A DNA stretch of 35,842 nt from Chrysochromulina tobinii (taxonomy: Eukaryota), in contig JWZX01003089.1 of the NCBI GenBank assembly GCA_001275005.1, forward strand, positions 1 to 35,842. The letters are read 5' to 3'. Positions within the stretch are counted from its first letter, which is position 1. Each line of letters opens with the position of its first letter. The notes beneath the pieces were generated by a model that ran no database searches, was not told the origin of the DNA, and was given only the letters and a program-made list of their open reading frames with translations. Both the position numbers and the translations under genes were made by a program. Below are positions 12,451 through 31,510 of the stretch, piece after piece.

Positions 12451-12655
12451 CTCTGTGATTTCTCTGTGAAGCCTCTCTCTGAGTCGCGGGGTTGATTCTT
12501 TATAGCCGGAGAAACGCATGTGCAAACGGCTACACCGTACAGCGAGGCGCATACCGTGGTAACAAACCGTTTGTCATGTCCTATCATCAATCGCACTCCG
12601 CCACATCGACTGCCAAAGCTGTCCTCCGTGCTCTACTTCGTCAGCCTCTCGACCC

Positions 12656-13030: not shown

Positions 13031-16000
13031 AGTGGGGCACCCTCAGTTGGCTCGCTGCTGAAGCCGCCGCCTGCAGCTCCGGCAGCATCACCAAACGACG
13101 CCGGCGCGTCGCTGAAGCCACTGCTTACCGCACCGAAGCCACTGTCATCACCGCCGAAACTGATGTCACCACTGCCGAAGCCGCCATCTGCGCTGCTGAA
13201 GCCGCCATCTGCGCTGCTGAAGCCGCCATCTGCGCTGCTGAAGCCGCCGTCGGTGCTGCCGAAGCCGCCGTCGGTGCTGCCGAAGCCACCGTCGCCATCG
13301 CCGTCGCCACCGTCAAAGCCGCAGTCTGCAGCTCCTGCAGCATCACCAAACGACGCTGGTGCATCGCCACCGCCGAAGCCGCTATCCTCATCGCCGAAGC
13401 CGCCGTCTGCGCTGCCAAAGCCGCCGTCGTCACCGCCGAAGCCGCTGTCCCCATCGCCGAAGCCGCCGTCTGCGCTGCCAAAGCCGCCGTCGTCACCGCC
13501 GAAGCCGCTGTCCCCATCGCCGAAGCCGCCGTCTGCGCTGCCAAAGCCGCCGTCGTCACCGCCGAAGCCGCTATCCCCATCGCCAAAGCCGCCGTTGGCA
13601 CCACCGAAGCCGCCAACTGCGCTGCCGAGGCCGCCGTAGGAGAGGCCACTGGCCACTTTGAGTGGGCTGGACGTCCTTGATGGCGGGGTTGGCAGTTTGG
13701 TGAGCACATCAGCATACGTGGGGCTCCGTCTGCCGGGCGGGGTTGTGGCAACGATCACGGCCGGGCGGGGGAGTGGGGGAGCGACTAGCGATGGTGTGGC
13801 CGGTAGTGGGGCGGGGGCCGACAGAATCGCGTCGACCTCAGCCTCAATCTCGCAGCGACGATCCAGTGACGGCACGCCGCCGACCGGGCTGCTGTCGCCT
13901 GTGGACGACTGGAAGGCAAGGAAGCCCACCTGTGGGGAGGGAGGGCGCCGTGGTGAGCACTTGCATGCAGGCTGCTGTCTCCATTAGACGACAGGAAGGC
14001 GAGGACACCCACCTGCTTCGGCGCTCTGTCATGGCGCCGTCGTGTCGGCTTCTCGGGTTTCGAAGAGGGTTCGGCAGGACGCTCGGCCGGACGCGACAAC
14101 TCAACAGAGCCAATCTCCGCGCCGCGCCACGCCCTTTTTGGATCCACCGACGGCGTGAACGGAGGGGGACGAAATGGCTGCGCCTTGAAGGACTGCTCGC
14201 GCGTGGGCGGACCAGGTGGCTGAGCCGACCACGCGCTGCTCAAGTGGCTGAGGCCTGTCTCCGGCGAACCGGCTGCCGACTGGGCCACGGACATCGCTGG
14301 GGAGAAGGAGACGGGAGGTTGCCTCGACAACTCCGGGTACTCGACAGCGGGCGCAGTTGGGCGACCATCCGCGCTGAGGACGTTCGCGACCGTCGCGTCT
14401 ATCTGCTGCTGCAGCACCCCGATCTCGGCCGTGAGCTGCGAGAGCCCCAAGTGCAACGGCGCCACCTGCTTCGACTCTACATGCGCCTGCTGCAGCAGCA
14501 GCGCCTGCGATTGCTTGAGCGCGCGCACCTCTTCACGCGCCGTGCTGAGCGCCCGGTTGAGCGCGTGCGCCTCGTCAAGCTGGGAAGCCATCCTCGTCTG
14601 CACCGCGGTCACCTCCCTCGCCAGCGCCTCGAGCTCTTGTGTGGCCGAATGCAGCTCGTGCTGCTTCTCGCGCAGTGTGCCCGCATACGAGTCGCATTGG
14701 CCTCGGAGGGACGCGAGTCGGCGCAGGCACCACTCATGCTCCTTGGCGACCGCCGCGCGCTGCTGCTCGGTCGCCGCGATGCGCAGCTTGAGCTCCTCTG
14801 CTTCGCGATGGCGTGCGGCCACGTGCACCGACACAGCCTGGAGGGCCCCCTTGGAGTCCCCGAGCTCGCGCACACGCCCCTCGAGCTCAATCGCTTGGAG
14901 CTGTATCTCGCCCGAGCTCGCTCGCTCCAGCGCGTCCCTCGCCGAGGCATGGTCGGCGCGGAGCGTAAGCTTTCCCTCTCCGACGAGTTTATGACGAATC
15001 TCGAGCGTTCTTTTCCATGCTCGGCACAATCGACGGGCTGCCCAGTGGGCCGCAAACGCTTCAAGCAAAAGCGGCTTGAACTGCCTAACGTGCAGAAGAT
15101 GCCGAAGGTTGTATGCATGCCCAAAGAAGATAAGCCCCATTTTGGGTGGCGGCAGCTCCGGTCTGGGTAGGCCCCCACGCGCGATGGGCGCTGGACCCAT
15201 TCGCTCCAGAACGAAGTAGTGCTGTGCCGCTTGGTCGTGAGCCATGCATACGTCGCGTGTCTCATCGTTGCGTATCAGCGGCGCGAAAGTTCTATCGTGA
15301 TCTTCGGACCGGCCGTATACCCTGATGCGCACGTTGAAGGTTTTGGCCGCCGCCATGAGTTCGATTTCACCCTCGACGTACGTGCCCTCTATTGAAGTGT
15401 TGTCGACATACGAGTCAAAGTCTTTGTAGTTGATATCAGAGTAAATGTGCACAAACTGCTCGAACTCTTCGCGGTGCTCACGCATGTACCGAATGGTCTC
15501 TTGGCGCGCGCGACCGTGCAGCTGTTCGTCCCCATCCACCTGCTTCGCAAGCGCACGGAAGAAGCAGTTGCCGTCACCGACCACGTCCACTCGCTGCCAA
15601 CCGTCGGCTTGGAGAGCATCGAGGCGACGACTCAGCTCGGTATCCCCCTCAGAATGTGGCTGCGACGGTGGCGGCTGCGGTGCCCGTGCCGCCATCACGG
15701 GTGCATGCTGCTCCGAAGCTCGTGCTTCACGACCTTGACCAGCCCGCAGCCAGCCGCCTATCTTGGCCGAAGAGCTCGAGGCCGGCACCACTGATGGTTG
15801 CCGAGAGTCTGCCTCGGAAGCGTTCATGGAAGGCAGCCGGGAGGGCGAGAAATCTGGCCACGCGTTCTGCTGCTGCTCTTGATAAGGGAGAATGGTGGCC
15901 TCGGACGAGCCGACCAGGGTAAAGCCTTCGGCTGTTGAGTCCGTCATGACAGCATGTTCGTCGGCGGCAGCGATGTGTAGAGCTGCCATGTTATCTGCCG

Positions 16001-18470
16001 CGCTATCCGCAGCGAGCACGCCGTACTCGATGCCGGCGTCGTGTGCGCCAGGGGCGGTGGGCGGCGGCATGAATGATTGCTCTCTGTAGACAAGTGTAAA
16101 GCCTTCGGCTGTTGAGTCCGTCATGACAGCACGTTCGTCGTCCATGTCCAAACGGCCGATGCAGTTGCGCACATCCTCTTCGAATTTGGGATCGGTCGAA
16201 TCCTGTGGAAGCGTGTCCGCACGGGTGTACACTCCGTTAGGAAAGGCGAAGAGGAAGCGCGTGACGACGGCGTTCTCCTCGGGCGCCACCCAGATGGCTT
16301 GTGTCTTCCTGAGCGAGGGCACCTGCGCCACCTCGCATAGCGCCAAGAGATTGAGCTCGCTGCCTGCGAGGAAGGCATTTCCGCCCGCGGCGGCGCCGGC
16401 GGAAATGGCGGCGGCGGCGGATGCGGATACTACCCCGCCGGCGGCGGCGGAAAATACCCCGGATCTGCGCATGGCGAATCCCAAAGACATAATGGCGCTC
16501 GTCGAGAGGTAGACGCCTGCGCCGTACGCCGCGCCCGTGGTCATGAGCTTCGTGTTCGACAGGTTGCGAAGCCCCGTGCGCAAAATCGAGTGCCAATTCT
16601 CTGAGCTTGAGCCGTGCCATGCGAACTTGGAGCCATGCTGCCGCTTGAGCTCCTCGAAGGCCGCCTGCCGTTCGGGCGGTGCCGAGAGCATCACAAACTG
16701 ATGGCGTGTGCCCAGCGACGCGAGCTTGAGCGCCTCGGGCACGGAGACAAGGTGGGCGCGATTCGAACTGACGATCCACTCAAACAGGCCGAGGGCCAGC
16801 GGGTGCTGTGCGTCCATGAGCCTCCGAAGCCCCTCTGTCCCGTCTCCATACGCCGCCGCGTTGATGCGCTCGAAGGCAGGGAATCTCCCGAGGATCTCGC
16901 GTGTCAACGGCAAATTGGGCTTCTCGGGATCGAGGGCGAGCACCGACGAGCCGCGCTGTGCCGGCACCCACGGCATGGGCGTCAGGATATCGGCAGCCCG
17001 CGCCGAGGTCGCAGCCAGCGTGGTGGTGGCAATAAGAAGGTCGAGCACCTCTGCATGCGCCACCATGCGCCACCATGCCTCGCCGACGAGCAGCCTGCCA
17101 AAATTGGCAAACTGGTGCTTGCACAGTGGCCGTTGGCACACCGTCGGTTGGAGCATCGCGCCAAACGGATGCGGCTCGTCGCAGATGGCGCAGTAGGCGT
17201 TGAGCGATCGCAGCCGACTGATGACGTACGAGATGGTTGCTGGCGCCGGGCGAACGAAGTCGAGAGCCTCCTCGCGCGCTCTGTGCCGGCTGTCCATGCG
17301 ACGCGGCATCACGCTCGTGAGGCTTGCATGGCTGCCACTGCTGCTGCCACCGTATTCCAATGCTGCCAGTGCTGCTGCCGCCGAGCAGTCCGCAGGCGAG
17401 ACTGCGCCCAAGGAGGCGACACTGCGCCAAACTCGAGCTGCCACCGCCGAGAGATTGGATCTTTCCTTCTGAGATTGGATCTGAGATTGGATCTGAGATG
17501 CGGTGGATCCAATCTCAGATCCAATCTCGAGATTGGATCTTTCCTTCTTGATGACAAGCTCTTCGCCGCCGCGCATCGCTTCTGCAGCAAGAGCCTCCCA
17601 AAAGACTTGGATGATGCGTAGCAGCTGTTGCGCGACGATGCAACCGTCGTCGTTCGCCGCGATTGCCGTGCCATCCTCGCCACGACCCGGGTGCCACAGC
17701 GTCGCCTTGTCGATGCGCCGACTCTCGTACGCCGCGCTGTCCTCAAAGGACAGGGTGAGCTGAAGCGTGCTGTGCAGGCCCCACGCGGTGCACACATCCC
17801 TCGGGATCACCTTGAACGGCTCAAAGATGAAGTGGAGTACCTGAGGCGCCGAGAGACCGTCCAGCCGCGTGAAAGTCACGCTGCCCTCGCCGAACAGCTC
17901 GTGGCAAAGCCGCACATCGTCGTCCATGTTGTCGGTGGCCACATCGCCCGACAGGAGGCCAAGTTGTACCTCATCCTCCGCATCCGACGCATCTGACACC
18001 TGATCGGACTGCTGCGAACTCTTCGTGTCGGCGGTGCCACTCCTGCGTGGCGCCAAGTAGCGCTTCTCCTCGCACATCTCACAGCGTAGCAGCGCAACAA
18101 GCCCCTCGGTGCTGTGCTCGTGCCCGCAATTTTCGCACGTCCACGGTGTGGGGGCCGTCGTCGGAGGCGGCATAGGCGGCGCCCCTTCGGCTGGGGGCAG
18201 TGCCATCACTGGGCTACACCGCCTCCTGACTGCCCTGACATGGGCGTCGGCGTCCCCGGTTTCGTACGTGTCGTCGTCATCTGTCACGAACGTCTTCTTG
18301 TCCCACTCCTCCTTCTGCAGCGCCAGGGCGAGACCCTCATCGATGAGGGCGAGGCTACTGCCTAGAGATGCACGTCCAGCATTTGGCGGCTGATCCATGC
18401 ATGCAAGAAGCTCGCTCTCGACCTCAAAGTCGACTTCTTCTGAGGCGGCTCGAGCGCGGGGGATGGCCAT
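13021..18470 (-). CDS. Multidomain protein (~1788 aa): ubiquitin-binding-like helix, RanBP2/NZF zinc finger, PARP6/8-like ADP-ribosyltransferase, OTU deubiquitinase, coiled coil and Gly/Asp/Phe repeats; exons 18470-14013, 13929-13021
   Basis: DEGLALALQKEE; WTCENC..RCEMC; YCAICDEPH..PTVCQRPLC (PARP6/8 Cys-rich); FAWHGSSSENWHSILRTGL..GAGVYLS..ALCEV..IWVAP..VVTRFLF; VGDGNCFFRAL..GEIELMAAA..QHYFVL. The phase-0 intron 13930-14012 joins PKQ|VGF. Confidence 0.8.
13100..13620 (-). repeat. Coding low-complexity array (21/63-nt units; DGGFGSA/GDGDSGFG)
   Basis: GAAGCCGCC units repeat with 21-nt periodicity. Confidence 0.9.
13930..14012 (-). other. GT-AG intron made of a copy of the downstream exon start plus a shared 3'-splice-site cassette
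   Basis: Intron start GTGGGTGTCCTCGCCTTCCTGTCGTCTAATGGAGACAGCAGCC resembles exon start GTGGGCTTCCTTGCCTTCCAGTCGTCCACAGGCGACAGCAGCC. The intron ends TGCATGCAAGTGCTCACCACGGCGCCCTCCCTCCCCACAG. Confidence 0.85.
17451..17548. repeat. 78-nt in-frame insertion: 20-bp direct repeat around an inverted (GAGATTGGATCT)n hairpin
   Basis: GAGATTGGATCTTTCCTTCT occurs at 17451 and 17529. The interior GAGATTGGAT units face ATCCAATCTC units. Confidence 0.85.
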
Positions 18471-18680
18471 GTTGAAAGTCGAGCGACCCTGCAGCACAGC
18501 TGTGAAACACACCTCTCCCCTCATTGCGACGCAGATGCGTCTGATTTGCGCGCAAATGCGACGGTTTTTCGGCGCTCGTGCGACGTCATCTGGCGACAAA
18601 GTCTTCTCTGTCCCCAAAGTCTTCTCTGTGACCGACCCTTCCTAGTTGCGTGACGCGGGTCGGCGGCTGTGGTCTTCGTC
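18471..18680. promoter_or_regulatory. Short divergent (bidirectional) intergenic region with a repeated CAAAGTCTTCTCTGT motif
   Basis: ~210 bp between ATGs on opposite strands. The 15-bp motif occurs at 18597 and 18615. Confidence 0.45.
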
Positions 18681-20834
18681 ATGTGGACGATGCGAAACAG
18701 GAAGCCCGTGCGCGTGCATGCGCGGCTCGTGGAAACAGTTGCACGCCTTCTCCCGCCCAGTAATTATGATATCCATACTCGGCGACGACCACAGCGCCAA
18801 GATACAGCACGGATAGTACACGAAGCGTTGAGCCAAGAGAGCGACTGGGCAGACATCACGCTCACACAAGTCAGCCATGCGCTTCGTATCCTTCGCTCAG
18901 GAGCACAATCTTGGGCTCAGGACGATGCTCGCAACAAGGCTATGGAGCACATTAAAGCTGGCGGCAAGCTCAAGAACCTTCCGAAAGCGTTTCGTGACGA
19001 TGAAGAGATAGTCTTGGCCGCCGTGTGCCGGGAGCCCGATATGCTTGCATCAGCATCGATTCGGTTGCGTAATTCTGAGGCGGTCGTGCGAGCTGCAGTG
19101 CAACTGCGCCGAGGAGTATTGCGGTTTGCGTCGACGTCGTTGCAACAGCAGTTCGGCAGCATTCATGCCATGCAAAGGGAAGCTGGAGGATGTGACGCAT
19201 CGTCTCCGAAATCTCGGCCGCAGCGCTGCTACAGCTGCGGTGTTTATCAGGGCATGCACACGGGATTCAGCGGTCCGCCTGGCTTCTACCCCGAACGCTG
19301 CTCTTTTGCGCGAGCGCAGTTCAAGCGTGCGGAAAGTCGACGGCGCTGTCGTGACTGCACCCGGGTCTTTAAGCCTTTGCGCACGGAGGCAGAGCTGACA
19401 GCTGGCGAGGAGCGGGTACATGAGTGGAGAGAGAAATTGGAGATCACCCGCGGCAATTCCGGCTTGCTGGATCAGCTACCAGACACTGTATTTGATCTGA
19501 TCTGCCAGGCTCTCTCCCGTGATGAGCCGCCCTGGCCCTCGTATGAAGCTCCGCGTGTGATCATTCCGCAGCTTCACGACAGGCATCTGCCTGACAACGC
19601 CGTGGATGATCCTGAGTTTATGCCTGACACGGAGGAAGGGGAGGAGAGGGAGGAAGGTGGGGAGGAGGATAGTGATAGCGAGGAGGACGACGACGACGAG
19701 GAGAGCGAGTCGGAGGACGAGTCGGAAGATGGCAACCTTGCAGAGGAGATTTCGTCACCAAACCTTGGACGGGAGCTCCCGCCACCACACTCTTTGCACC
19801 TGCACGGCTGTTCTTCACTCGCAACCGTCTCGCGCAGCATCCACTCTCTCGTTGCCTCTTGGGCAGCCTCCACGATTGAGAAGCTTCGCCAGGTGATCGC
19901 CACAGATGAGCGCATGGCATATGCACGGCTCGAGCTGCAGCGCCAGGCACTCAACGAGGAACGGCGCCTGCGCGAGGAGACAACGTTACCCCCACACAGC
20001 TCTCGGAGTCATCACGCCAGCCGATTTGAGGTTCATCCACTGCTCCGTATGTGGGGCACCGAGGCGGTGTGCGCGCTTGAAGGACTCATTCTTGACAGCT
20101 TTGATGCAGTCTGCATGCGTATGGGCCCGGGTCTGGACGCATTCTTAAGTTTCATGCGGGGTGATGGCGACTCTTCGGACGGCTTTTCGCGCTGGTCGTT
20201 GCTCGATGGCGAAGGGAGGCGAGCAGTAGATGCAGCTTCAGCATGTGACGGCCAAGTCTTCCTTTTGCTTGACAGGAGCCGGCAGAATGATCCGTGCGGC
20301 AGCCGTACATTGCCCAAGCTTCGCCTTGTCTGGCCGATGGCCAATCCTCATTGCCCTAGTCGTGGCTCGGAGGATCTTGATGAGGTCGTGCCAATGGAAT
20401 GGGAAGCTTCCAACTTTTTCTTCGATATGGAGCAGGACGATGCTTCCCTTTACACGGATTGCACAGGAGGCGACTCCCCTTGTCAAGGACGTACTTGGTG
20501 GCTCGAGCAGAATTATGGACGGGGCTGGGGCCATCGGAAGGACCGGCCCAAAACAGTGGGTGAGTTTTGCCGCGAAGAATCTGAAGAGACGCCAGGGTGC
20601 TCACCTTACGGACTTCACATGAATCCTGTCATCAGAAGTACTGGCCAGAATGAGTGGCAGCCGATCATGCCGGGATATATGCAAAAATCGTGGTACCACG
20701 AGCTTCCAAATGCACACTCAATTGCTTTCTACAGCTCCCTTACAAATAGCGGGCCTGTGTTCCTTGCACCAGTTGCAGAGTACATGCAGCTGGTCTATCC
20801 ATGGTTACCTGTACCTGACCCCCTAACCTCGTAA
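18681..20834 (+). CDS. Hypothetical protein with DUF4116-like repeats, a C4 zinc finger (Stc1-like), an F-box-like motif and an acidic tract; intronless
   Basis: FRDDEEIVLAAV..LRNSEAVVRAAV..LRFAS; CYSC...FARAQF..RRCRDC; LLDQLPDTVFDLICQAL; D/E run. The ORF is long and of normal composition. Confidence 0.7.
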   Translation: MWTMRNRKPVRVHARLVETVARLLPPSNYDIHTRRRPQRQDTARIVHEALSQESDWADITLTQVSHALRILRSGAQSWAQDDARNKAMEHIKAGGKLKNLPKAFRDDEEIVLAAVCREPDMLASASIRLRNSEAVVRAAVQLRRGVLRFASTSLQQQFGSIHAMQREAGGCDASSPKSRPQRCYSCGVYQGMHTGFSGPPGFYPERCSFARAQFKRAESRRRCRDCTRVFKPLRTEAELTAGEERVHEWREKLEITRGNSGLLDQLPDTVFDLICQALSRDEPPWPSYEAPRVIIPQLHDRHLPDNAVDDPEFMPDTEEGEEREEGGEEDSDSEEDDDDEESESEDESEDGNLAEEISSPNLGRELPPPHSLHLHGCSSLATVSRSIHSLVASWAASTIEKLRQVIATDERMAYARLELQRQALNEERRLREETTLPPHSSRSHHASRFEVHPLLRMWGTEAVCALEGLILDSFDAVCMRMGPGLDAFLSFMRGDGDSSDGFSRWSLLDGEGRRAVDAASACDGQVFLLLDRSRQNDPCGSRTLPKLRLVWPMANPHCPSRGSEDLDEVVPMEWEASNFFFDMEQDDASLYTDCTGGDSPCQGRTWWLEQNYGRGWGHRKDRPKTVGEFCREESEETPGCSPYGLHMNPVIRSTGQNEWQPIMPGYMQKSWYHELPNAHSIAFYSSLTNSGPVFLAPVAEYMQLVYPWLPVPDPLTS

Positions 20835-21330
20835 TACTTGTTACTTCGGTACCCCGCCCTAGCGGCCGGGGTGTTAGCTGTTACGACCGCAACCGATCTA
20901 AGATGTACCGCAGTAAGTCGGTAATATGAGCTCTATAAACGTGTTGCAGTGTGTGAAAAAGTGAACTTCGCGTCGGTGTCCGAGGTCTGATTAAAAAATC
21001 TTTCTGTTTGTCTTTGCTCGGGCACTACTCGCTCACGCCGGCGGGCCTCCTCGGAATGGGACTGCGCGCTGATCGCCATACGATCGTCTTGCAAAAGGGG
21101 TGTCACATGCTCACATGACTTATGAATGCTTGCCGAAAACATCCAAGCACGAAGCCGAGCCCGCGCGACCGCGTAACGCGCGACACCGAGTCACCGACAG
21201 CCCGCGCCGATTCAAAAGTTCATTTTATTAGAATCATTATTACTTCAGTGTCGTCCCTCACTTGACTCTGGATCATATTCAACTGATCTATCCGAGTGCT
21301 GGCCTATCTAAAAATATCTAGCAGTATATC

Positions 21331-21382
21331 TCTTGCCGTTCTGAGGAGGTTCACGATCTTGCCGTTCTGAGGAGGTTCACGA
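21331..21382. repeat. Perfect 26-bp tandem duplication
   Basis: TCTTGCCGTTCTGAGGAGGTTCACGA x2, just 3' of the minus-strand Cys-rich gene. Confidence 0.95.
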
Positions 21383-21386
21383 TCGC

Positions 21387-21911
21387 CTACAGCTCCTCCT
21401 TTGCAAACGGCTTGGGTTCTCGGGGCCGCGCGTAGTGGTGACCCTCATCAATGTGTAGCTTTGCGTTGTACAACAACTCGTCGGGCGTCCAGAAGTGAAA
21501 GCCGGTCGGTAGCATCTCGTCCTCGTCCTTGCCGCCTTCCTTGCTGGCCAGCTCCGCGTCGCTCGCGTGCGGCCGGCACAGGCCCCACTGCGTGCTCGGA
21601 TGCTTAAAGCAGCCCCCTTCGGCGCACATCATGCGTCCTTCATGTGGGCCCATCTTGAGGCACTCGCAAGATGAGGGCAGCCAGCACTTAAGAGGGCAGT
21701 CAAGCTCTTCGCAGTATTCGCCATCCGGGCATGTGTACTCCTGATTCTGGCCACGGCCACGCAGGCGCAGCTTGCATAGCTTGTACTCGAAGTGCTCCGG
21801 CTCGCAGTAGTCGGGCACCCAGCAGTCATGGCTGATGTGATCCGTCAGTGGATCAAAGGGCAGCTTGCAAGCGCAGAAAGAGAATCGCACGAGAAAGAGT
21901 GCGACGCGCAT
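21387..21911 (-). CDS. Small Cys-rich protein with a possible signal peptide and C-terminal KEEL
   Basis: MRVALFLVRFSFCAC start; many Cys, including CAEGGCFKH..LCRPH; ends AKEEL. Confidence 0.6.
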   Translation of the reverse strand: MRVALFLVRFSFCACKLPFDPLTDHISHDCWVPDYCEPEHFEYKLCKLRLRGRGQNQEYTCPDGEYCEELDCPLKCWLPSSCECLKMGPHEGRMMCAEGGCFKHPSTQWGLCRPHASDAELASKEGGKDEDEMLPTGFHFWTPDELLYNAKLHIDEGHHYARPREPKPFAKEEL

Positions 21912-22127
21912 ATGGATTCTCAGCGCAAGAACGCTCGGTAAAAGGAAAGATCTAGGGGCTTCCAAACTTTTCGAGGGTAACTCTCAACAAAATTATTTGA
22001 CGCTTTTGTTGGAATTACTGTTGACGAAGCATCTGTTTTGGTGCGCGACACTTCCATTTGCTGTCCATGTACATTATTGGCCTCCTCTAACCTGTCGTCG
22101 CTGATCCAGCGCACGCGATTAGGATCC

Positions 22128-23636
22128 ATGGCATTTGGCCTTTTGCGAGAGTTAATCGAATCTTTCTGGATTGTGCTCGCGCCTGCACTTCCCCCATCAT
22201 CCAAGGCTAACCACACGCAGCTCAGCAGCAACATTTCCAAACCCAAGGCCAAGTCGTCTCCCACGGAGCAGGTCCAGAAGGAGAGGAAGCTGGCGGCCCA
22301 GAAAAAGGAGAAGAGGTCACGGCCGAACAGATCCACCGTCACGAGGTTGGAATGGGATGAATGGGTGGCGGCCGCGCCGAAGAGCGCCCTCGGGTCCAAG
22401 CTCGTCGGGAGATGCTCTGCGGCAGCACCACGGCGAGAAAAGCGGCTGCCGACTGCAGCCGTGGGCGTACCGCTGGCCTGCCTGCCACCAGCGATGCTCC
22501 CGCGCCACGGCTTGGCACCGTTGCCGGTGATGCAGAGGGCGGCCGCGTCGCCGTCATCGCCGTCATCGCCGGCGATGCAGATGGCAGCCGCGCCGTCGTT
22601 AAAACCACATTCTGAGCTCGTGGCCACAAAGACGCTCGTGGTGCGCGAGGGCTACGCGCTCGACAGCGCAGTGGTAGAGCCCTCGGTCAGTCAGGGGCAG
22701 GTGGTTGTCATCCTTATGACCCTTGAGCTCGCGGACGGGACCTACCGAGCGCTTGTTCGGCGACCGGGCCTCGTTGTGCCGATGGGCTGGATCACCTCGA
22801 TGCACAAAGCGGGGTCCGTCCTCCTCCTGCCACGTTCCGATCCGCAGAGCGCGCATCTGGAGAATGAGCTCGCGAAGGCGAAGGCACGTGCCGCAGCCGC
22901 TCGGGCGTCGGCCATCGTCGCTGAGAAGCTCTCTCAAGCGGCGCGCACGCACAAGCCCTACATCGGCTTAGAGATGCCCGTGGAGCTGCAGCCCCGCGGC
23001 AAGGCTGCGAATGCGCACGGCTCGCTCGCGTCGAGCACAGCCAGCTTTATGTCGTCTGACGTGTCGTCCAGGTCTAGCAGCAGCGTGCACTGCTCACCTG
23101 CGTCACCAGCGTCACCTGCCTCCAGGACGAGCAGTCTATCTTATACTGGGAAGGGCGGGCCACTCCCTTCCGAGTCGTACGAGACGCCCGACAGAATGAC
23201 CCGGCTGGGCGTTCCAATACCATCGCTGCCTGGCTGGCTGGCATGCACCGACCCGACGCACCAACGGCCCTTTTGGTTCAACACACTCACGCAGGAGACT
23301 GTGTGGGTGGACCCTCGCCTGAGAGCGACACCGGCGCCAGCAGACACGATCTGGTCTGGATGTGATCTGGCCGATCGAGAGCAGATTGTCGAGACCGACT
23401 TTGGCAGGCCTGGATGGCGACGACGATGGCGACGCCAGGACACGGCCAGCCTAGCGCCGCGACAGATAGCAGCAGAGCCGACGCCGGCAGCGACAGTCCC
23501 GCCGACGTCGGCATCACTGCCGGTGCGGCCAAGGGCACCGAGCTCGTCGCCGCCAGAGTCGGCGTTTAAACTGGCCCAAGCTTTGGCAGAAATGCGTCGT
23601 AGCCGAGAGGAAAAAGAGCGAAAGTCGTACGCGTAG
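22128..23636 (+). CDS. WW-domain protein with a possible SH3-like domain
   Basis: LPGWLACTDPTHQRPFWFNTLTQETVWVDP (WW). LVVREGYALDS..GQVVVIL..GWITS is SH3b-like. The start codon is uncertain. Confidence 0.7.
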   Translation: MAFGLLRELIESFWIVLAPALPPSSKANHTQLSSNISKPKAKSSPTEQVQKERKLAAQKKEKRSRPNRSTVTRLEWDEWVAAAPKSALGSKLVGRCSAAAPRREKRLPTAAVGVPLACLPPAMLPRHGLAPLPVMQRAAASPSSPSSPAMQMAAAPSLKPHSELVATKTLVVREGYALDSAVVEPSVSQGQVVVILMTLELADGTYRALVRRPGLVVPMGWITSMHKAGSVLLLPRSDPQSAHLENELAKAKARAAAARASAIVAEKLSQAARTHKPYIGLEMPVELQPRGKAANAHGSLASSTASFMSSDVSSRSSSSVHCSPASPASPASRTSSLSYTGKGGPLPSESYETPDRMTRLGVPIPSLPGWLACTDPTHQRPFWFNTLTQETVWVDPRLRATPAPADTIWSGCDLADREQIVETDFGRPGWRRRWRRQDTASLAPRQIAAEPTPAATVPPTSASLPVRPRAPSSSPPESAFKLAQALAEMRRSREEKERKSYA

Positions 23637-23989
23637 CTATAAAAACTGCGCTGCGCGCGCCAAACTCGGCTGGCCGGCACTTGTAGCCTGTAAGTAGCCT
23701 GCACACGCCGACGCCGCCCGCCCCCCGCGGGCTTCCCATGGGGGATGGGCCGGGCTCGGGCGTGTCTGATCTCGTACACCATACTCGCCCGTCCGGTCCG
23801 CCGGGCTCGCACTCACCTCAGTTACATCCCAGTACCGGCTCTCGCTCACGTACGTCGTGACTGTGTCGACCCCCCAGTGCCGTGTAGCCTAGCCTGTAGC
23901 TGTGTACACGAGTCAGCAGTCACGACCAGAGTAATATTCATCACGACCCACCGCGGTCTTGAATCTTTGAATGCACTGCCAGCTTCGCT

Positions 23990-25090
23990 TCACCGTCCCC
24001 GCGCTTTATTCTTCCCAGGATGACCGCGCATTGCCATTGGTTGCCGCATGCGCCAGGTGGCGCGCACCCTATGGACACTCCCCTGGAGGCATCCCCAGAG
24101 GGCGTCAGCTCTGTCCTCGATGGAAACACAATAGAAGAGCGAGTCGGATGTGACTTGTGAGGTTCGAGGGTCGCCCCCTGAGGTCCTGTGGGGAGGGACG
24201 CTTGAGGTCCTGTCGTGTAACAGTCGAAACGCCTCTGTGGCCTCAAACTTGGCCACGTCATCCTTTGGGACGCATAGTAAGTTGCGGCATCCCGGGGCTC
24301 CGCAGGCCTCATCAACCACGTACACCGCGTACCGGGAGTGGCCGAGCAGCCTACCAAGCTGTACCGCCATACTGTAGTCTCTCTCGGAATATCCAACGAT
24401 CGAGGTGTTGGTATGCGTCTCCAAGGTGAGCCAAGGACGGTCGCGTGCGAGCGTCCGCCTGGCTCCGAGAAGCACCTCGTACTCATGGCCTTCCACGTCA
24501 ATGTGTGCCAGCGCCAGCCGCTCACCCTCAAAGATGCCATCGATCGTGAGTATGGGAAAAGTCTCTACCTCCCCTGTGCTCTCGTTGGTGACTTGTGAAA
24601 GCGTGAGCATGTTCTGTCCCAGGTTCCTATATCGGATGCGAGGCACTGTTATGTTAGTGTGCGCTTCGCGGCCTAGCCCTGCGTGTGTGACGGTCACGTT
24701 TCTTGCGCCCCACGCCTCCCACCGTGGAAGCAAGCTCTGCATGTAGGCAACATTCGCCTGGAGAGGCTCCACGGCGTGCACCATGCGCGACGGGTCCAAA
24801 GAGCTGTACCAGCAGGCCTCGCCGCCGATGTGTGCGCCGACATCGAGCACGCTTCCAGCAGGCAGCAGGCCGTCGGTGAGTAGCATCAGGCCGCAGAGGG
24901 TATGTAGCACGGGCTCCATCGCGGCCTTGAATACCCCATCGCCGAGGCAGCGCGTCGCCGAGCCAAGGCAGCTGGCTGGAGGCCGGCCGAGCTCCCCCGG
25001 GCGCCCACGCCAGAGCTCTAGGTTGCTCGCGTTCAGCAAGCAGTAGAGGCCTGACGCCGCAGCCTCGCGTCGGCGCTCCACATTTGTCAT
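23990..25090 (-). CDS. FkbM-family SAM-dependent methyltransferase
   Basis: VLDVGAHIG, VHAVEP, TIDG, HIDVEGHEYEVLLGA..RPWLTLE. Confidence 0.85.
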   Translation of the reverse strand: MTNVERRREAAASGLYCLLNASNLELWRGRPGELGRPPASCLGSATRCLGDGVFKAAMEPVLHTLCGLMLLTDGLLPAGSVLDVGAHIGGEACWYSSLDPSRMVHAVEPLQANVAYMQSLLPRWEAWGARNVTVTHAGLGREAHTNITVPRIRYRNLGQNMLTLSQVTNESTGEVETFPILTIDGIFEGERLALAHIDVEGHEYEVLLGARRTLARDRPWLTLETHTNTSIVGYSERDYSMAVQLGRLLGHSRYAVYVVDEACGAPGCRNLLCVPKDDVAKFEATEAFRLLHDRTSSVPPHRTSGGDPRTSQVTSDSLFYCVSIEDRADALWGCLQGSVHRVRATWRMRQPMAMRGHPGKNKARGR

Positions 25091-25532
25091 CACACGCCTG
25101 GCGTGTGAACGTTAACACGACAGACGCGACAACCGGCGTTTGTATTGGCTGTAAATACTCGACCGTCCTAGGATTTGTGTTGAGGAGGGGCGTGTGCCTC
25201 CAGTTGATATTTGGGGTTCGTTGAGGCAGTCGTTGTCGCGGACGTGTGTGTGAATTGAGCATCTATTACAATGACATCTAAAAACATTCACGTCATTACG
25301 GGTTACCGTAAATAGACGATACCCGGAAGCGAAACAGATCTCCGTCCCGTCCCAGGGGAGGCGCAGGGAGCGGGCGCGCGCGCGCTCGGCTCGCGGCAGG
25401 GGAGGTGAGCGGGCCAACGTGGGTGCAAAGCGAAGTGGGTGTGGTGGGGCCCCCTCCAAAGTGCAAAGACCAAAGAGCCCAATGATGAGAAGATTTGCAC
25501 GAGACATTATGCAAATTACCATCCAACCTAAA

Positions 25533-26306
25533 TCACCCAGCCACCGCCTTCCAAAGGGGCTGCGCCACAAACACGACCAGCACAAGCGCCTGCAGTCCGA
25601 AGAGGATGGCATACCCGGACGCAATAGCCGCGCGCCCTTGCAGCAGCGAGCGCTCGAACTCATCGAGCACGAAGACGGAAGGCTGCGGCCGCCAGCGGCT
25701 CAGCTGCCGCGCTACCTCCTCGGGCGCCACGTAGGGCGAGCCGCCCGACAGCGCCGTCCACGTGGCCTCCATCGCTAGTGCGCTCGGTGGCGCCTGCGAC
25801 GGCGCCCACGTTGACCGGACGGCTCCGTTGGTGAGGGGCGCGCCGTCAATACCATGGAGTGTGGTGGGCTGCGCCGGCCGCTCAGCAAGGAGCGCCTCAA
25901 ACTCGGCGCGGCGTATAAGCCGGCCCGCCGCGGTACCGAGCGTGTCGCCTGGCTCGAGGCGTGACACCGCGTCTAGAACGTCGTCTGCATACAGTGGCGC
26001 CGGGTAGCCGAGCCAGCGCGAGCACGGCAGTACGACGCCGCCCACCTCGGCGGCGGCAGTACGCTCGCTCAGCCGCTCGGTGCGATCGCCGAGCGAGGCG
26101 AGCGCCTGCGTATTGGCAGCGCGTAGTGACGGCAGCAGCCCCTGACCCAAAAAGGCGAGTGCCAGCAGCGGGCCGAGGACTGCTTCGACCGACGGCCCCC
26201 CGCCCCCGCCATCGAGAAACACGGAGGCGCTCGGCTCGGCGACAGCGGAGGCGGCGGCGGAGAGCGTCGCGGTGGAGAGTGTTGGGCCGAATGGTGGCAA
26301 ACGCAT
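25533..26306 (-). CDS. Hypothetical membrane protein
   Basis: Two hydrophobic segments (VLGPLLALAFLG; YAILFGLQALVLVVFV). It is divergent from the COMMD gene, and the start is uncertain (26306 or 26387). Confidence 0.6.
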   Translation of the reverse strand: MRLPPFGPTLSTATLSAAASAVAEPSASVFLDGGGGGPSVEAVLGPLLALAFLGQGLLPSLRAANTQALASLGDRTERLSERTAAAEVGGVVLPCSRWLGYPAPLYADDVLDAVSRLEPGDTLGTAAGRLIRRAEFEALLAERPAQPTTLHGIDGAPLTNGAVRSTWAPSQAPPSALAMEATWTALSGGSPYVAPEEVARQLSRWRPQPSVFVLDEFERSLLQGRAAIASGYAILFGLQALVLVVFVAQPLWKAVAG

Positions 26307-26485
26307 TGGTTTTGGACGCCCTCGTGAACGGAAGAAAGACACTCGTTCCTGGAGAGGGCCGTCTGGTCGCGTGCTTTCGCGACCCATTGTGTGTCCGCGT
26401 GTTCACACTCGAGCGAACTTGGCCGACGGTGGCGCCGAGCGAAGGGTGCGAGTTCGTGTGCGTGCAGCTCCCTTCTGAGGCTGAG

Positions 26486-27142
26486 ATGCCAGACGCGGCC
26501 GCGGCCGCGCCGCCGTCGCCGCTTGCGGCGCTGAGCAAATTGAGCCTGCTCGACGACGCGGGTCGCAGCGCCTTCTTCGGATGTGTTGCCAGCCAGCTAT
26601 GTTCCACGTCACCGCCGGTGGTGGAGGAAAGGCTAAAGTCCTTGCACGAAGGCTTCGGCTTGGACTTTGCCAGCGGCGAGCCAGCGGCGCTGCTGCTCGC
26701 CGCCAAGCTCGTCATCTGCCGGGTCGCGTCGCGCACATACGAGGGCGCCAGCGCCAAGGCCGCTTTGCTCGCTGACCTGGTCGCTGCCGGGCTTCCGCAG
26801 GCCGCCGCCGAGTGGATACGCGAGGCCGCGCAGGCCGCGACGCTGCCGTGCGCCGCGCAGCTGCGCCTCGCGCAGGGTCACGCGGCGGCCGCGTTCTCGT
26901 CCGACTACTTGCAGGACTTCGACTGGCAGCTCAACTACGTGCTGGCGAGCTCGACCCAAAGCGGTCTCCCACTGGTGGGTACGCCTCTCGTGCAGCTACA
27001 GCTAAAGGTGCGGAAGGCGGGCACCGACGCCGAGGCGATCGAGCGGCTAGAGCTCGCCCCGGCAGAGCTCGATGCCGCGATCAGCACTCTCGGTGCTGCG
27101 GTCAGCTCTCTGCGTGCTTTGCCGGAGCCTGGGGTGGCTTGA
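26486..27142 (+). CDS. COMMD8: COMM-domain protein, COMMD8-like
   Basis: C-terminal LQDFDWQLNYVLASS...PLVQLQLKV...LELAPAELDAAISTL fits the COMM domain. LQDFDWQ is the COMMD8-type motif. Confidence 0.75.
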   Translation: MPDAAAAAPPSPLAALSKLSLLDDAGRSAFFGCVASQLCSTSPPVVEERLKSLHEGFGLDFASGEPAALLLAAKLVICRVASRTYEGASAKAALLADLVAAGLPQAAAEWIREAAQAATLPCAAQLRLAQGHAAAAFSSDYLQDFDWQLNYVLASSTQSGLPLVGTPLVQLQLKVRKAGTDAEAIERLELAPAELDAAISTLGAAVSSLRALPEPGVA

Positions 27143-27667
27143 GCAGCGGCGTGGACGGCGCCCGGCCGGCTCGACTAATGATATGGCCATAGCTCGTGTT
27201 GTCAGAAACGTCTTGTCATAACAGTGACACTCGAGCGCGCGCTCAACGTTCCGTGTATGTTCGCAAGTATCTGGGCCGTTGCTTTAGTTGCGGTACATTG
27301 ACCTACATGCTTCTCCTAAAAGGTGGCTAGTATACTCGCCAGCGCGCTCTTCCGCGCTCGACGCGTCGCAAACGTACCGGAAACCGCCGACGTGAACGTC
27401 AATCGTCGCACGCTCGGCGCACGCCGCACCCTCACCCGTCGTCACCCGGCGCGAGGCCACGACTCCGCTTGGACCCGCCAGTCGGACCTGTACGCCTCTC
27501 CCCATCTCGCACTCGTCGCCCGACGCACCTCTGGCGGCCTCAACAATGCCTCAACTCTCCGTCCAAAGGTCATGCTGTCGGTAGTCGTGACATTTGGGTC
27601 GCGCGGGGCTCGCGAGCGGCGGCGGGGACTCCCCGCCGTGTCTGACGAAGGGGACTCGCGCGCCCAT

Positions 27668-30600
27668 CTACGCGGGTGTAGCGCCTGCACCCGCACCGCC
27701 ACTCCCACACGCGGCCTGGGCGCCGCCCTGGGCGCCGCGGCGCATGTAGATGAGCACATACGCTGCAGGGGTGATGATCGAGCTCACGTCTTCCACGAGG
27801 CTTGTGTGCGAGTCGTCAAACTTGTACCAGTCGCCCGAGAGGCTGTTCTTGGCGAATGCTGTGTAGTGCCCGCCTCCAGTCGAGCCATAGTGGTTCGAGC
27901 ATGCGATCAAGTCATAGAGGTACGCGTCGGTCGTCGAGCCATTGGCGCCGCGGCGGGCACTCGGGTGCACCACGTGGGCCGCCAAGTCCAATTCCAAGGG
28001 AAAACGGACGGGCGTGTCGTTCTTACGCCGCCACTGGTTCCCGGAGAAGCGCTTCAGTTGCATCACGAGGACGTCGGGTAGGGACCAGAACTGCGCCAGC
28101 CGCATACACGGGGGAGTGAGGGGAGAATGGGGTGCATGTGGGGAGATTGGGGAGCATGTGGGGAGATTGGGGCGCAACGGCACACGACGTGCGCACGCAC
28201 GTGTGCATGCATGTGAGCACGGCTACATGCACGCGAGCACGGCCGCACGCACGCGAGCACGGCCGCACGCACGCGTTCGCGCACGCACGCACGCACCTCG
28301 ATCTTCTTGGACGCTTCGCGATGTTCCTTGCACTGAGGGCAGTACCATGCATTGTCGGCATCCAAGGTCTCCTCGCGAGAGAAGAGTTCGAGACACTGCA
28401 AGAGGTCGACGCCCACGGCGGCGCCGTTCTTTTCCGACGGAGGCTTGTGGCCCGCTTGGATCCCGTACCTGTGGGGAGAGGGCGCCGTGGTGAGCACTTG
28501 CATGCGTGCAGGGGCGGAGGCTTGTGGCCCGCTTGGATCCCGAACCTGTGGTTGGCGTCGCCGGCGCCAAGCGCGCCTTCGAGCTTCGCCTTGTCGTAGG
28601 ATCCCAACGGCTCGAAGGCTTCGGGTAACCATTCGAGGACGACGTGCCTGGTCTCGGGAGGGGGCGCGTCGTCGCGGGCGGCCAGGCTGCTTGTGCCGCC
28701 GCCGCCGGCGACGGGGCGAGAGGTGCCGCTGCTGCCACCGCCGCTGCTGCTGCCGCCGCTGCTGCTGCCGCCGCTCGCGAGCGTGGCTGCGCTGCTGCTG
28801 CAGTCGCACCGGTTGGTGCTGCTTCCTAATTTGGGCGCGCCGAACTCGCACAGCGCGCTGGTGCACGGGATGACAGCACCCATCGGTTCCTGCCCTAGCT
28901 GGCCCACTGTCATCGACGTATAGCGTAGCCGCCACTGCGCGCCGCGCGCGAGCGGCGCGGCGGGCGGCTGATCGGCGCCGACCTTGGCGCCATCGTCTCC
29001 GGTGGAAATGCCGTTGGACTCCTCCTCCAGAGGCGCCGTATCGGGCGCCTCGTGCGGCGGGGGCGCCTCTGCATCGGCCTGGCCACCCCGCAGCTGGGCG
29101 GCGACGAGGGCGTACAAGGCCTCACCGCTCGTCGTCCACGAAACCGCGAAGGCGAGGGGCGTTCCCATGAACTTGACTTGCCCATAGCCCGTGCCTGTCG
29201 GAGAGGCTCGTTGCGGCGCGCGCTGCGGGCAGATGAGCACGAGCGGTGCGGCGTCTGCCTCGGCTTCGTCAATCCCGTCGAGGTGCACCTGCGAGATGAT
29301 GAGGGAGGCAATTAGGGGAGTCATCAGGTGCAATCAGAGCGCACAGATCCCGTCGAGGCGCGCGCACACCTGCCAGATGACGATGACGTCGCTGTCGTGG
29401 ATCAGCTCGAGCTTAGACTGCGGGCTGAAGAGCTTGTGCAGCTTCGAGCCGTACACCTCGGCGCACACGAGGGAGGTCGGCACGAGCGCCGGCGCACTCG
29501 GGTCGACCGCCCGCGCCTCGACCGCGACCGCCGTGAAGAGATCCTTCACAGCACCCGCGAGGGGCACGGTGACACGCAGCACTGTGAAGGAGCCGTCGTA
29601 ACGGCGCAGCGTGAGCGAGAGTCGGCGAGTGTCCTCCGGCTGCAACGGCACCGCCACGCTCATGAACGAGTCGAAGGTGACGCTCACCTGAGGAGGGAAG
29701 CCATCACGGAGGGTCATTCGTGGCAATCGTCCGAGGGTCATTAGTGGCAATCATCCGAGGGTCTTACTGACGCTCGTGAAGAACGAGTCCGAGCCCACAC
29801 TCAACTCAAGTCAAGTCAAGTCAAGTCCGAGCCCACACTCACCTTGCTGCACAGCGGGCAGATGACCGTCGATTTGAAGTATCCCTCGAAGAGGTCCGCC
29901 ACGTAGGAGTCGTTGCGCAGCTTGTGACGGCGTGTGACCTCGCGCGCAATCTCGACGTCGGGCTCGGTGCCCTTCGCTTCGAAAGTTTCCACGTACGGCT
30001 TCTTGCGCACGCGGTTCGTATCCTCATGCAGCTTGTCCAACACGTAGTTGCACAGCTCCTGGGAGTCCTGCTGTCCGTAGCCCGCAAACTGCGGCGCGAA
30101 GCGTCCGAGCACATGCTCGTCGGCAATCCATGGCAATCCATGGCAATCCATGGTAATCCATGGCAATCTATGGCAATCCATGGCAATCCATGGCAATCCA
30201 TGGCAATCCATGGCAATCAATGGCAATCCATGGCAATCAATGGTAATCAGTGGCAATCAATGGTAATCAATGGTAATCACCTGCGGCGCGAAGCGTCCGA
30301 GCACGTGCTTGAAGTTGCGCGGCGAGACGGTGGTGGCGGCTCCGCCCCACATGAGCTTGAGCAGCGCCGCGAACGAGCGAGCGAGCTCGCCATTGGCACC
30401 GAGCGGGTTGTCCTCGTTGAGGTCGACGAGGTAGCCGTCGTCGAGGAACCTCGCGCGGAGCATGGGCACGTTGGAGAGGCACTGGAGCATGGAGTTCATG
30501 AAGCACGTGTTGCCCAGATTGGAGAGGCCGACGACACCGTCGAGCGCCGGCTTCGTGCTGTCGACGACCCTATCCTCGTCTCTGCTGCTGCTGCCGCGCC

Positions 30601-31510
30601 CGCTGCCGCCACCGCCATGCCCATGTCCCGTCGCCGCGGCTGTGCTCGACGAGGAGCCGCTGACGCCGTCGAAGAGGTCCATGCTGCCACCGCTCGCGTC
30701 GTCACCGTTGCTCACGTCCGAGAAGCGCCAGCTGCCGTCGGCCTGCTGCACCTCGACGAGCACATCCTGAGCGGGCATCAGATTCGTCTCCATTAGGCTC
30801 TTGCTCGTGTCCGAGAGCTGTGTGTACCGTTTCTTCTTGTAGTAGTCCCACAGGCGCACCTTGTCGAGGCCAGGCAGCGCCCAGATGGCGACCATCTTCT
30901 CGAGCAGCGCGTGCACGGAGGCACTCTTGCTCATGTGCAGAACATACTCGCCGCTCGCCTTGGCCTTGTGTGTGGCGGAGTCGCTCTGCAGGTGTACGAC
31001 GAGCTTGAGCAGCGTGAGTTCGAGGAGCACCTCGGGCTTCGAGTAGGCGCCGCCGCCCTCGGCCAGCGCTATCCTGCGGATGGTGGGGCCGCCGCCATAC
31101 CATTCGACAAGCTTGCTCCAGGCGGCCTCGCCGAGCACCTTGAAGTCCGAGCCCTCTCGCAGACCCTCGCGCAGCAGGTACTCGGTCGCATCCTCGTCAT
31201 CCACCAGCAGGTCGCTCGTGACAATTTGACCGGGCGCATCACCACCGCTGCTGGTCGGATCCCAGTTCGAGTATGCGGCCCATTGCGTCCACCAGCTGCG
31301 AGCGAGAGATGCAGGCGCATGCGCAACGGGTCAGTGCGTCCAGACAGCAGGAGGTGACAGAGTGTGGCTGCCTGCGCCGCACCTCTGCGGCACGAGGTAG
31401 TAGAGCCTGTTGGCCTGGAGCGGCTCATTATCGGCGTGCAGAGCTTTTATCAGCTCCTTCTGCGCGGCGGGCCCCGGTGGCGAGCCAATAGTGTCGCTGA
31501 GAGGAGCCAT
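27668..31510 (-). CDS. USP4/11/15-type ubiquitin-specific protease (DUSP-UBL-USP); exons 31510-31383, 31295-30281, 30088-29843, 29687-29370, 29288-28546, 28468-28297, 28090-27668
   Basis: DUSP ([21 protein letters not shown]), Cys box [52 protein letters not shown], His box [20 protein letters not shown]. Six GT-AG introns. Confidence 0.92.
28091..28296 (-). other. GT-AG intron with (GTGC)n and 10-mer repeats
   Basis: KKIE|FWSLP junction. GCAC repeats and GGGAGATTGG/GGGAGCATGT units on the + strand. Confidence 0.85.
28469..28545 (-). other. GT-AG intron made of a ~31-nt copy of the downstream exon plus the shared 3'-splice-site cassette
   Basis: GTTCGGGATCCAAGCGGGCCACAAGCCTCCG versus exon GTACGGGATCCAAGCGGGCCACAAGCCTCCG. 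The intron ends GCATGCAAGTGCTCACCACGGCGCCCTCTCCCCACAG. Confidence 0.88.
29289..29369 (-). other. GT-AG intron with a partial copy of the downstream exon
   Basis: CCTCGACGGGAT is present in both the intron 5' part and the next exon. TGATTGC-type filler. Confidence 0.82.
29688..29842 (-). other. GT-AG intron with a degenerate exon copy, (TTGAC)n and 10-mer repeats
   Basis: CSK|VSVTFD junction. GTGAG..GACTCGTTC..GAGCGT in the intron resembles the exon start. Confidence 0.82.
30089..30280 (-). other. GT-AG intron with a (CCATGGATTG)n decamer array; its 3' end copies the upstream exon end
   Basis: CA(C/T)GTGCTCGGACGCTTCGCGCCGCAG is at both the exon end and the intron end, separated by a long decamer array (~30120-30280). 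Confidence 0.9.

Follow-up and report, generated by a model that had tools for sequence, protein, structure and literature searches.

Results

Two genes sharing an intron cassette

The window (the whole 35,842-nt stretch of Chrysochromulina tobinii contig JWZX01003089.1 analysed here) holds on its minus strand an open reading frame with PARP and OTU domains (13785-18641; Pfam PF00644 and PF02338) and, according to its domains and homologues, a gene for a deubiquitinase of the USP4/11/15 type (27640-31330, limits approximate), the exons of which encode UCH, DUSP and ubiquitin-like domains (PF00443, PF06337 and PF14836). The names PARP-OTU and USP given in the initial annotation thus hold. The PARP-OTU protein had no match in the Atlas, and the only named haptophyte match in the homologue search was from Prymnesium parvum (60%).

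A near-identical cassette had been noted in introns of these two unrelated genes, and it was confirmed as an exact 28-nt match (13941-13968 and 28478-28505, both on the minus strand) with a chance expectation of approximately 2e-7 in the window. No third copy was found in the window within 8 mismatches, and a candidate near 9063 was rejected as in-frame coding sequence without duplication. The USP intron (28469-28545, minus strand, 77 nt, GT-AG) begins with a copy of the first 31 nt of the next exon, which is the source of the GT donor (28515-28545, with one mismatch in 31 against the exonic copy at 28438-28468), continues with a 9-nt linker that is neither family core nor exon copy (28506-28514) and ends in a 37-nt cassette (28469-28505) made of a 23-nt core (28483-28505), a pyrimidine tract and the CAG acceptor. 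The PARP-OTU candidate intron (13930-14012, minus strand, 83 nt), the splicing of which is unsupported, has the same anatomy: an older copy of the following 43 nt (13970-14012, with 8 mismatches against 13887-13929), 1 nt and a 39-nt cassette (13930-13968; core 13946-13968, pyrimidine tract, CAG). The cassette had been placed at 13930-13969, which is correct except that it starts at 13968. The remainder of both introns had been described as next-exon copy, which applies to PARP-OTU save for the 1 nt but not to USP with its linker. The duplications reach further upstream, over CAG in PARP-OTU and over CCACAG in USP. From the proposed set of branch point, pyrimidine tract and CAG, the branch-point-like motif is conserved, but family-wide only the 23-nt core and the final CCCACAG are shared and the tract between them varies. 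The predicted branch A lies at 28491 in USP, where conservation suggests its use, and at 13954 in PARP-OTU.

Across the USP intron the tblastn frame shifts from -3 to -2, and homologues align without a break to the exons once these are joined. Of the 47 introns of the family that could be tested, 45 need splicing to keep the reading frame, according to indirect evidence composed of a codon model, USP and RPB3; the model was retrained after dropping two out-of-frame training pieces, with the same result. Downstream of the PARP-OTU candidate intron both frames are open, and because an RNA contig of run X15 (13960-14984) passes the donor unspliced, splicing of this copy is doubtful. Among the joints listed for contigs of two RNA runs and two DNA runs there was no spliced joint at either window intron, although this list is filled by repeat-driven DNA joints and is not evidence of absence; run X21 gave scattered short pieces only.

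Size and architecture of the family

A scan of 5 of 64 parts found the 23-nt core in 135 metagenome stretches, from which approximately 1,900 are estimated, and roughly 700 exact core sites per genome, a copy number estimated from metagenome stretches instead of a whole genome. The exact core occurs in 146 distinct contexts, with USP, PARP-OTU and RPB3 among the named hosts, so that the family includes the at least four similar introns in non-paralogous genes by which introners are recognised; one locus (L048) holds 11 copies. No prokaryote genome stretch carried the core, and in the viral collection it was present on one contig, at the contig end, which is probably host DNA.

The link to flanking duplications is tight, as in 132 of 186 acceptor-bearing copies the first part repeats the next exon. 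This count comes from an anchored test that replaced a first one (76/139 passed), the null of which was inflated by orthologous pairs left in. Matches have a median length of 26 nt (10-70 nt, n=132), 43 of the 132 duplications are still perfect, and the duplication gives a GT start in 109 and a GC start in 8, in line with the proposal that the target duplication brings the donor. About half of each intron is cassette, unlike the introns made of duplicated exon only that tandem duplication alone would give. The shortest intron measured was 54 nt, linkers range from -3 to more than 30 nt, and the shared sequence begins 23-50 nt past the donor in 101 of 107 GT copies. Copies are in sense orientation, at acceptors, and lie nearly all on one strand within loci (371 pairs same against 24 opposite), with no clear antisense neutral copy found. 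None of the patterns that the initial annotation had named as speaking against its idea (low copy number, no duplicated flanks, random orientation or location) was seen.

The tiny mobile element that had been suggested is not supported as one element with fixed ends: the 5' junction varies, tails differ even among the 29 youngest copies (those with perfect duplications), copies resemble their neighbours, and mirror and 3'-truncated forms exist. A longer parent was found with its own donor, as the annotation had thought worth searching for, and this donor module is present in 22 of 273 copies, which may resemble one another also at the 5' end of the intron. In ten of the 22 the scoring finds upstream sequence repeated after the insert and ending in AG (clearest in L058, L106, L110 and L135). 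This is the mirror-image layout, in which donor and branch point come with the insert and AG comes from the upstream-exon copy. Some copies lying between direct repeats end immediately past the core (L010, L133, L134), several insertions lie at a pre-existing CAG without GT, and a few full-length parent-like copies have repeats of only 4-10 nt (L009, L014, L099). Just 4 of 167 copies have lost the first 10 nt of the core, a 12-nt palindrome spans the core's 5' boundary in 34 of 273, and 17 of 22 zero-linker copies share at least one base with the core start, several of these being tandem units.

No single master copy was found. No poly(A) or repeat tail stands at a fixed 3' end, as copies end in a variable pyrimidine tract and CAG and mirror copies lack these, and no terminal inverted repeats were seen in the contexts inspected. 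Neither window intron has a stable fold (z 0.2-0.8), and at gathering level Rfam matched nothing in L048; an origin from a structured RNA found no support in these results and was set aside. The short duplication of constant length typical of TIR/DDE elements was not found, whereas duplications of variable length with junction microhomology, as in SINE and non-LTR insertion, were.

Empty sites and local relatedness

Empty sites, which the annotation had suggested looking for in sister strains, were found for three introns (L078 against L011 and L039, RPB3, and USP), the USP window intron being missing from 6 same-species and 5 sister-lineage proteins. As in introners, splicing would restore the exon and empty orthologous sites exist. 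In L078 the polymorphic insertion consists of a perfect 33-nt duplication and 48 nt, and the latter equals linker, core and tail of a neighbour intron 524 nt downstream, matching the neighbour's L011 allele exactly and differing from its L078 allele by one change. Both junctions show microhomology (5', GC; 3', G|GTG). More generally, the closest relative lay in the same locus for 26.7 of 116 copies against 3.1 expected, an approximately ninefold excess, and tails at most one edit apart were seen in 7 of 179 pairs from the same locus, compared with 0.38% of 16,780 pairs from different loci.

Similar layouts with other filler

The duplication layouts recur in the window with other filler, 10-mer arrays. 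A mirror-type intron of the USP gene (30089-30280, minus strand) holds a 10-mer repeat array and then a 29-nt upstream-exon copy ending CAG, with exon limits that fit tblastn. On the plus strand, one predicted intron (32705-32858) consists of a 16-nt next-exon copy, a 10-mer array and an acceptor, and another (5968-6095) ends in a 28-31-nt upstream-exon copy. None of the three contains the core. That different fillers share these layouts suggests a process independent of any one sequence.

Discussion

We consider it somewhat probable (about 0.55) that the cassette is copied from an existing intron, often of the same gene, during fill-in of a staggered break, and that the products are filtered by splicing. 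This reading sets out from what is observed: introns built of duplication and cassette, copies numbering in the hundreds, alleles with and without the insertion, reading frames that hold only if the insertion is removed precisely, parent and mirror forms, and the local excess of look-alikes. It is also favoured by the L078 insertion with its match to the neighbour, by variable ends, by diverse tails among copies with perfect duplications, by insertions at a CAG without GT and by the recurrence of the layouts with 10-mer filler. Two offset nicks 25-50 nt apart would give the duplication, and the extending end would anneal via a few shared bases to intron DNA or RNA, a template that would lie in cis more often than chance. 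The branch-point part would be copied, and synthesis would return to the target at a shared (CA)G|GT motif. Only cleanly spliced products would survive in exons, and one junction would therefore always lie on a splice site with the duplicated exon giving the other, which is GT in common copies and AG in mirror copies. Every new intron would be a template in turn, so that the family could spread without transposase or master copy, and the long direct repeats would also permit tandem expansion and exact loss. In rice, repair of paired nicks is reported to leave duplications, the filler being copied from a template no more than 200 bp away (review PMC7407515).

Several observations stand against templated filling. 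Approximately three quarters of copies with a neighbour match best elsewhere (a small sample), so spread in trans would be needed, and local similarity could also arise by conversion after birth. The 5' boundary of the core, with its few losses, is sharper than random switching predicts, the one-strand bias within loci comes without a clear antisense neutral copy, and no evident case of donor-exon bases carried past AG was seen. The PARP-OTU copy retained in one RNA contig and the lack of a displayed spliced joint at the window introns belong here as well.

Target-primed reverse transcription is possible, at clearly lower odds. A non-LTR enzyme would nick the target and prime on intron RNA via a few complementary bases, a second nick 25-50 nt away giving the duplication. 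Tailless retrocopies are an analogue of such copying. The long and variable duplications agree with it, as do the strong sense bias, the absent donor-exon carry-over and an insert that has the intron's last base as its 3' end in the common form and the first base as its 5' end in the mirror, as an excised intron would give, with the other end variable and with microhomology; RNA staying near its gene could even yield the local bias. However, there is no poly(A) or fixed tail, inserts ending just past the core would need internal priming, and truncation inside the core is rare, unlike graded 5' truncation, while exact splice-site ends are expected from selection alone. The initial annotation had judged retro-insertion better than DDE transposition; DDE is indeed unlikely given duplications of 10-70 nt and no TIRs, but target priming is not favoured over copying during repair.

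An origin in two steps seems improbable, with an AG|GT exon segment duplicated in tandem and the cassette arriving later by ectopic conversion, which would also homogenise neighbours. Introns are known to arise by tandem duplication (PMC3443670), and the core can be exact where the duplication has diverged (8/43 in the PARP-OTU candidate); across copies the two divergences are uncorrelated (rho -0.10, n=39). Yet a bare duplication of 25-45 nt would be shorter than the shortest intron measured and would often shift the frame, L078 differs from its empty allele by duplication and cassette together, and 43 of the 132 duplications are still perfect. That the cassette is the body of a classical introner, a non-autonomous cut-and-paste DNA transposon, is very unlikely and already contradicted for the common form by ends that are not fixed, a mirror form, duplications of no single short length and the missing inverted repeats and stable fold, even if marine Chrysochromulina MAGs are reported to carry introner families, of which one makes a 4-bp duplication (PMC9860276), and L009, L014 and L099 are full-length with short repeats.

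The origin of new spliceosomal introns is a long-standing question, and to our knowledge there is one recognised source at genome scale, introners derived from transposons. Templated break filling leads to a wider idea, which we hold tentatively and at slightly less than even odds: introns may give rise to further introns with no transposon involved, staggered breaks being patched with the branch-point half of a neighbour, the duplicated exon giving the missing splice site and the products serving as templates, and much of the intron set of this lineage may have been built in this way with other fillers, unseen by screens for end-to-end introners. If true, new introns could arise here independently of any conventional transposon. 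The family is large and still polymorphic, with an insert traceable to a neighbour intron and half of the intron being the gene's own exon. As the organism is cultured, with DNA and RNA runs and with filled and empty alleles, template type, source distance and gain versus loss are directly testable. Screens that need similarity at both ends would call such genomes introner-free.

The cassette motif was in no paper found, and a copied half-intron family was not found in the literature searched. Introners, as reported (PMC9860276; PMC12130899; bioRxiv 10.1101/2020.10.14.339549), are alike in forming related introns in many unrelated genes, with exact exon restoration and empty sites, and in carrying one splice site while the target duplication gives the other; classes 4 and 5 of Symbiodinium/Polarella carry the acceptor, as here. 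The duplications reported there are 3-9 nt and family-specific, whereas here they are 10-70 nt, variable and approximately half of the intron, and there are no inverted termini or fixed ends, common and mirror forms coexist and copying appears to be local. The screen of Gozashti 2022 (PMC9860276), as described, required similarity near both intron ends, while here it is found at one end only. In tandem AGGT exon duplication (PMC3443670) a splice site likewise comes from the duplicated exon and the coding sequence is regained without change, but the whole intron is duplicated exon in the account given there, and here the duplication gives one site and the cassette gives branch point and the other site. 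Neointrons of Daphnia, attributed to double-strand-break repair (PMC4202315; PMC3443670), share direct repeats read as staggered breaks and presence/absence polymorphism; their repeats are short and the cited accounts leave the filler source mostly unknown, with four matches reported for newly found introns, whereas the filler here recurs by the hundred and can be traced to introns already present in the genome. Patch-mediated break repair, or templated insertion, in rice similarly combines a duplication with filler from nearby DNA; the part of the review drawn on here (PMC7407515) does not describe it as making introns, and for the present family a repair enzyme is putative.

Results

In agreement with the initial annotation, which claimed a near-identical cassette in two unrelated genes, both copies were found; they lie on the minus strand and share 28 identical consecutive nt (chance expectation in the window ~2e-7); no third copy within 8 mismatches was detected in the window. 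Intron 1 (13930-14012, minus strand, 83 nt) lies in a PARP and OTU ORF; it opens with 43 nt that duplicate the sequence after the intron (8 mismatches), and a single nt separates this copy from the 39-nt cassette. Intron 2 (28469-28545, minus strand, 77 nt), in a USP4/11/15-type gene, has a 31-nt copy (1 mismatch) joined through a 9-nt linker to a cassette of 37 nt. The suggestion that the rest of each intron copies the next exon thus holds, apart from this linker. Homology indicates haptophyte affinity, with Prymnesium parvum as the best named match (60%). Just downstream of the PARP-OTU ORF, parts of it occur a second time (11799-12456 versus 15637-16140, 89-98%) and a second, diverged version of 16141-18477 is present in DNA and RNA contigs, so the gene looks multi-copy and is possibly part of a mobile element. 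Elsewhere in the window, nested long inverted repeats at 65-4010 (761-nt arms 539-1299 and 2047-2807, 98%; 475-nt arms 65-539 and 3536-4010, 97%) overlap a 1141-aa ORF without Pfam match, and a BspA-type leucine-rich repeat protein with twelve 69-nt repeats lies at 7553-9739 (minus strand).

The cassette's family-wide 23-nt core occurred exactly in 135 stretches in 5 of the 64 parts of the metagenome collection (~1,900 estimated for the whole), in no prokaryote genome, and in one contig of the viral collection (L136/L137), where the cassette sits at the contig end and which is probably host DNA. The 163 exact matches represent 146 distinct contexts in 136 loci; with 10 redundant loci removed, 273 copies were counted within 5 mismatches, 190 of them with a pyrimidine tract and YAG. 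Low copy number had been named as evidence against a mobile family. The estimate is high, at ~720 exact-core sites per genome (85 culture-type loci, 101 site draws, 7 recaptures; Poisson range roughly 350-1,800, with two recapture pairs on one contig pair), and variant copies come on top. In DNA run X1, 75 contigs diverge from the cassette into unrelated sequence at window position 28505. Whole duplication-plus-cassette units expand in tandem (L022, L037, L048); in L037 and L048 they are repeated two to four times, and these loci hold ten and eleven cassette copies inside ~3 kb.

An acceptor follows the exact core in 105 of the 139 copies having enough flank, ending in CCCACAG in 73 and with GT next in 82. 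The expected association with duplicated flanks was also seen: a next-exon copy, anchored at the exon start, lies upstream in 132 of 186 analysable acceptor copies (score above the 99th percentile of a swapped-exon null). The match is 10-70 nt long (median 26, n = 132) and perfect in 43; the copy begins with GT in 109 cases and GC in 8, and intron length is 54-95 nt in 126. Among the other 54 are tandem units, older introns and copies whose duplication has decayed (an offset match in 13). Core positions 11-15 (GCTCA) are almost invariant (125, 126, 121, 124 and 124 of 126 variant cores) and the core A mostly lies 23-35 nt from the 3' end, which fits a predicted branch point. Cassette copies of one locus share a strand in 371 pairs versus 24, and in 51 of 58 multi-copy loci. 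Core-only copies without acceptor occur between direct repeats (L010:205-320, L133, L134, L074).

USP homologues align in frame -3 before intron 2 and frame -2 after it, and the joined exons align across the junction. The reading frame was assessed with a codon model, trained on exons of the window, in the 68 copies (of 132) whose 90-nt flanks were clean. Among 47 introns not a multiple of three, frame was kept only on removal in 45 and only on retention in none (42 and 4 of 48 in an earlier version of the model). No spliced RNA joint was present among the joints listed between contigs of the RNA and DNA runs and the window introns. Evidence against splicing of intron 1 comes from an RNA contig (run X15) that spans 13960-14984 with one difference and runs unspliced through the intron 1 donor, while USP gene contigs end at other exon ends. 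The intron 1 region appears multi-copy in X1. Its open frame has 303 codons if spliced and 76 if retained; since retention also leaves an open frame, the cell may tolerate this older copy unspliced.

The search for empty sites in relatives was successful for three insertions. In L078 (731-811), 81 nt absent from L011 and L039 comprise a perfect 33-nt duplication and 48 nt; the insert has no in-frame stops and is therefore evidence for anatomy, not splicing. In RPB3 (L124), nine listed proteins of the filled-form cluster read through the insert (seven in frame, one doubled, one frameshifted); P0065 lacks it, yet reads on into a later intron and may come from partly spliced RNA. In the sister cluster (~98% identical, contigs up to 27 kb) the insert is absent from all 12 listed members covering the site, the lists holding 15 of 27 and 15 of 39 cluster members. 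Read-through alleles are of 72-nt, 75-nt, doubled and frameshifted types (L124; P0022, P0052-P0065, P0084), and the insert-bearing lineage seems to have a second RPB3 intron near the C-terminus, absent from the sister lineage. For USP intron 2, 13 listed proteins are filled, 6 are empty at 98-99% identity and 5 of a sister lineage (~86%) are empty, one cluster being represented by 15 of 33 members. The junction residue is Y in the sister lineage, as in the window exon copy, and F in all 6 same-species empties, as in the intron copy; the filled allele P0112 reads F in both copies. The same-species empties may represent the allele before insertion, an exact deletion between the repeats, or an assembly that collapsed the 28 identical bases; gain is safely supported by the empty sister lineage. 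The cassette copies are a real, large and still-polymorphic intron family.

Discussion

The 48 inserted nt of L078 match the next intron, which lies 524 nt downstream, from its linker through the core to the tail, and both junctions show short shared bases. Tails lie within one edit in 7 of 179 within-locus pairs versus 0.38% of 16,780 between-locus pairs (tandem and orthologous copies excluded; pairs not independent), and 26.7 of 116 copies have their nearest relative in the same locus, with 3.1 expected. A longer parent, proposed earlier as worth seeking, was found: a donor module like L135:271-300 precedes the core in 22 of 273 copies. In 10 of these, a duplicate of upstream sequence with AG at its end comes after the core (some are tandem units; the clearest mirror copies are L058, L106, L110 and L135). 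Either half of one parent intron is thus insertable, both retaining the branch point, with the duplication giving the missing site. A 12-nt palindrome lies at a sharp 5' boundary in 34 of 273 copies; in L135:267-312 and similar copies it covers the join between parent linker and core, the place at which 5' junctions are concentrated. The donors of such loci include several GC sites (AG|GCAC or AG|GCAT), and the core start thus itself resembles a donor.

Both layouts also occur with 10-mer repeat fillers, in metagenome loci and in the window. Exon duplications accompany either 10-mer arrays or acceptors of a second family, which end in CCCTCATCAG, again in both layouts; window introns with other fillers lie at 30089-30280 (minus), 32705-32858 (plus), 5968-6095 (plus) and 29289-29369 (minus), besides many metagenome loci. 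The duplication-plus-filler process is wider than the cassette. In the TruD gene (5295-5423) a 63-nt unit, apparently comprising an acceptor, a GC donor and 10-mer repeats, is itself duplicated (95%).

We favour, with a probability of roughly 0.55, that a staggered break would be filled by copying an existing intron, from DNA or RNA template, and that the products would then be selected for clean splicing, since this explains why ends vary, why a mirror form exists, why sources are local and young tails diverse, and why other fillers occur. Target-primed reverse transcription of intron RNA accounts equally well for the exact splice-site ends and strand bias, but it requires priming at internal sites, and the graded truncation that it predicts is seen in few copies (4 of 167); we regard it as rather unlikely. 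Neither model explains the sharp 5' boundary near the palindrome. A duplication followed only later by conversion fits poorly and is improbable, and DDE transposition, also a poor fit, is very improbable. The initial preference for target-primed insertion over DDE transposition agrees with this ranking, but templated break filling ranks above both. The enzyme-level steps of all these mechanisms are our inference.

In the accessible portions of the introner literature, duplications are 3-9 bp (PMC9860276) or 3-8 nt (bioRxiv 10.1101/2020.10.14.339549). In the former, families from Chrysochromulina MAGs have a 4-bp duplication that carries the donor, and its screen demands similarity at both intron ends; C. 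tobinii is entered with 0 introner families in PMC12130899, which concerns the window only if its putative assignment to Chrysochromulina is correct. A description of the exon-copy and cassette layout was not found in the openly accessible papers searched, among them PMC3443670, PMC4202315, PMC11282704, PMC7407515 and PMC8469720. The cassette family works like introners, but falls outside them on tests of end-to-end similarity, fixed duplication and inverted repeats, and it could, at slightly under even odds, represent a transposon-free, self-templating route to intron gain.
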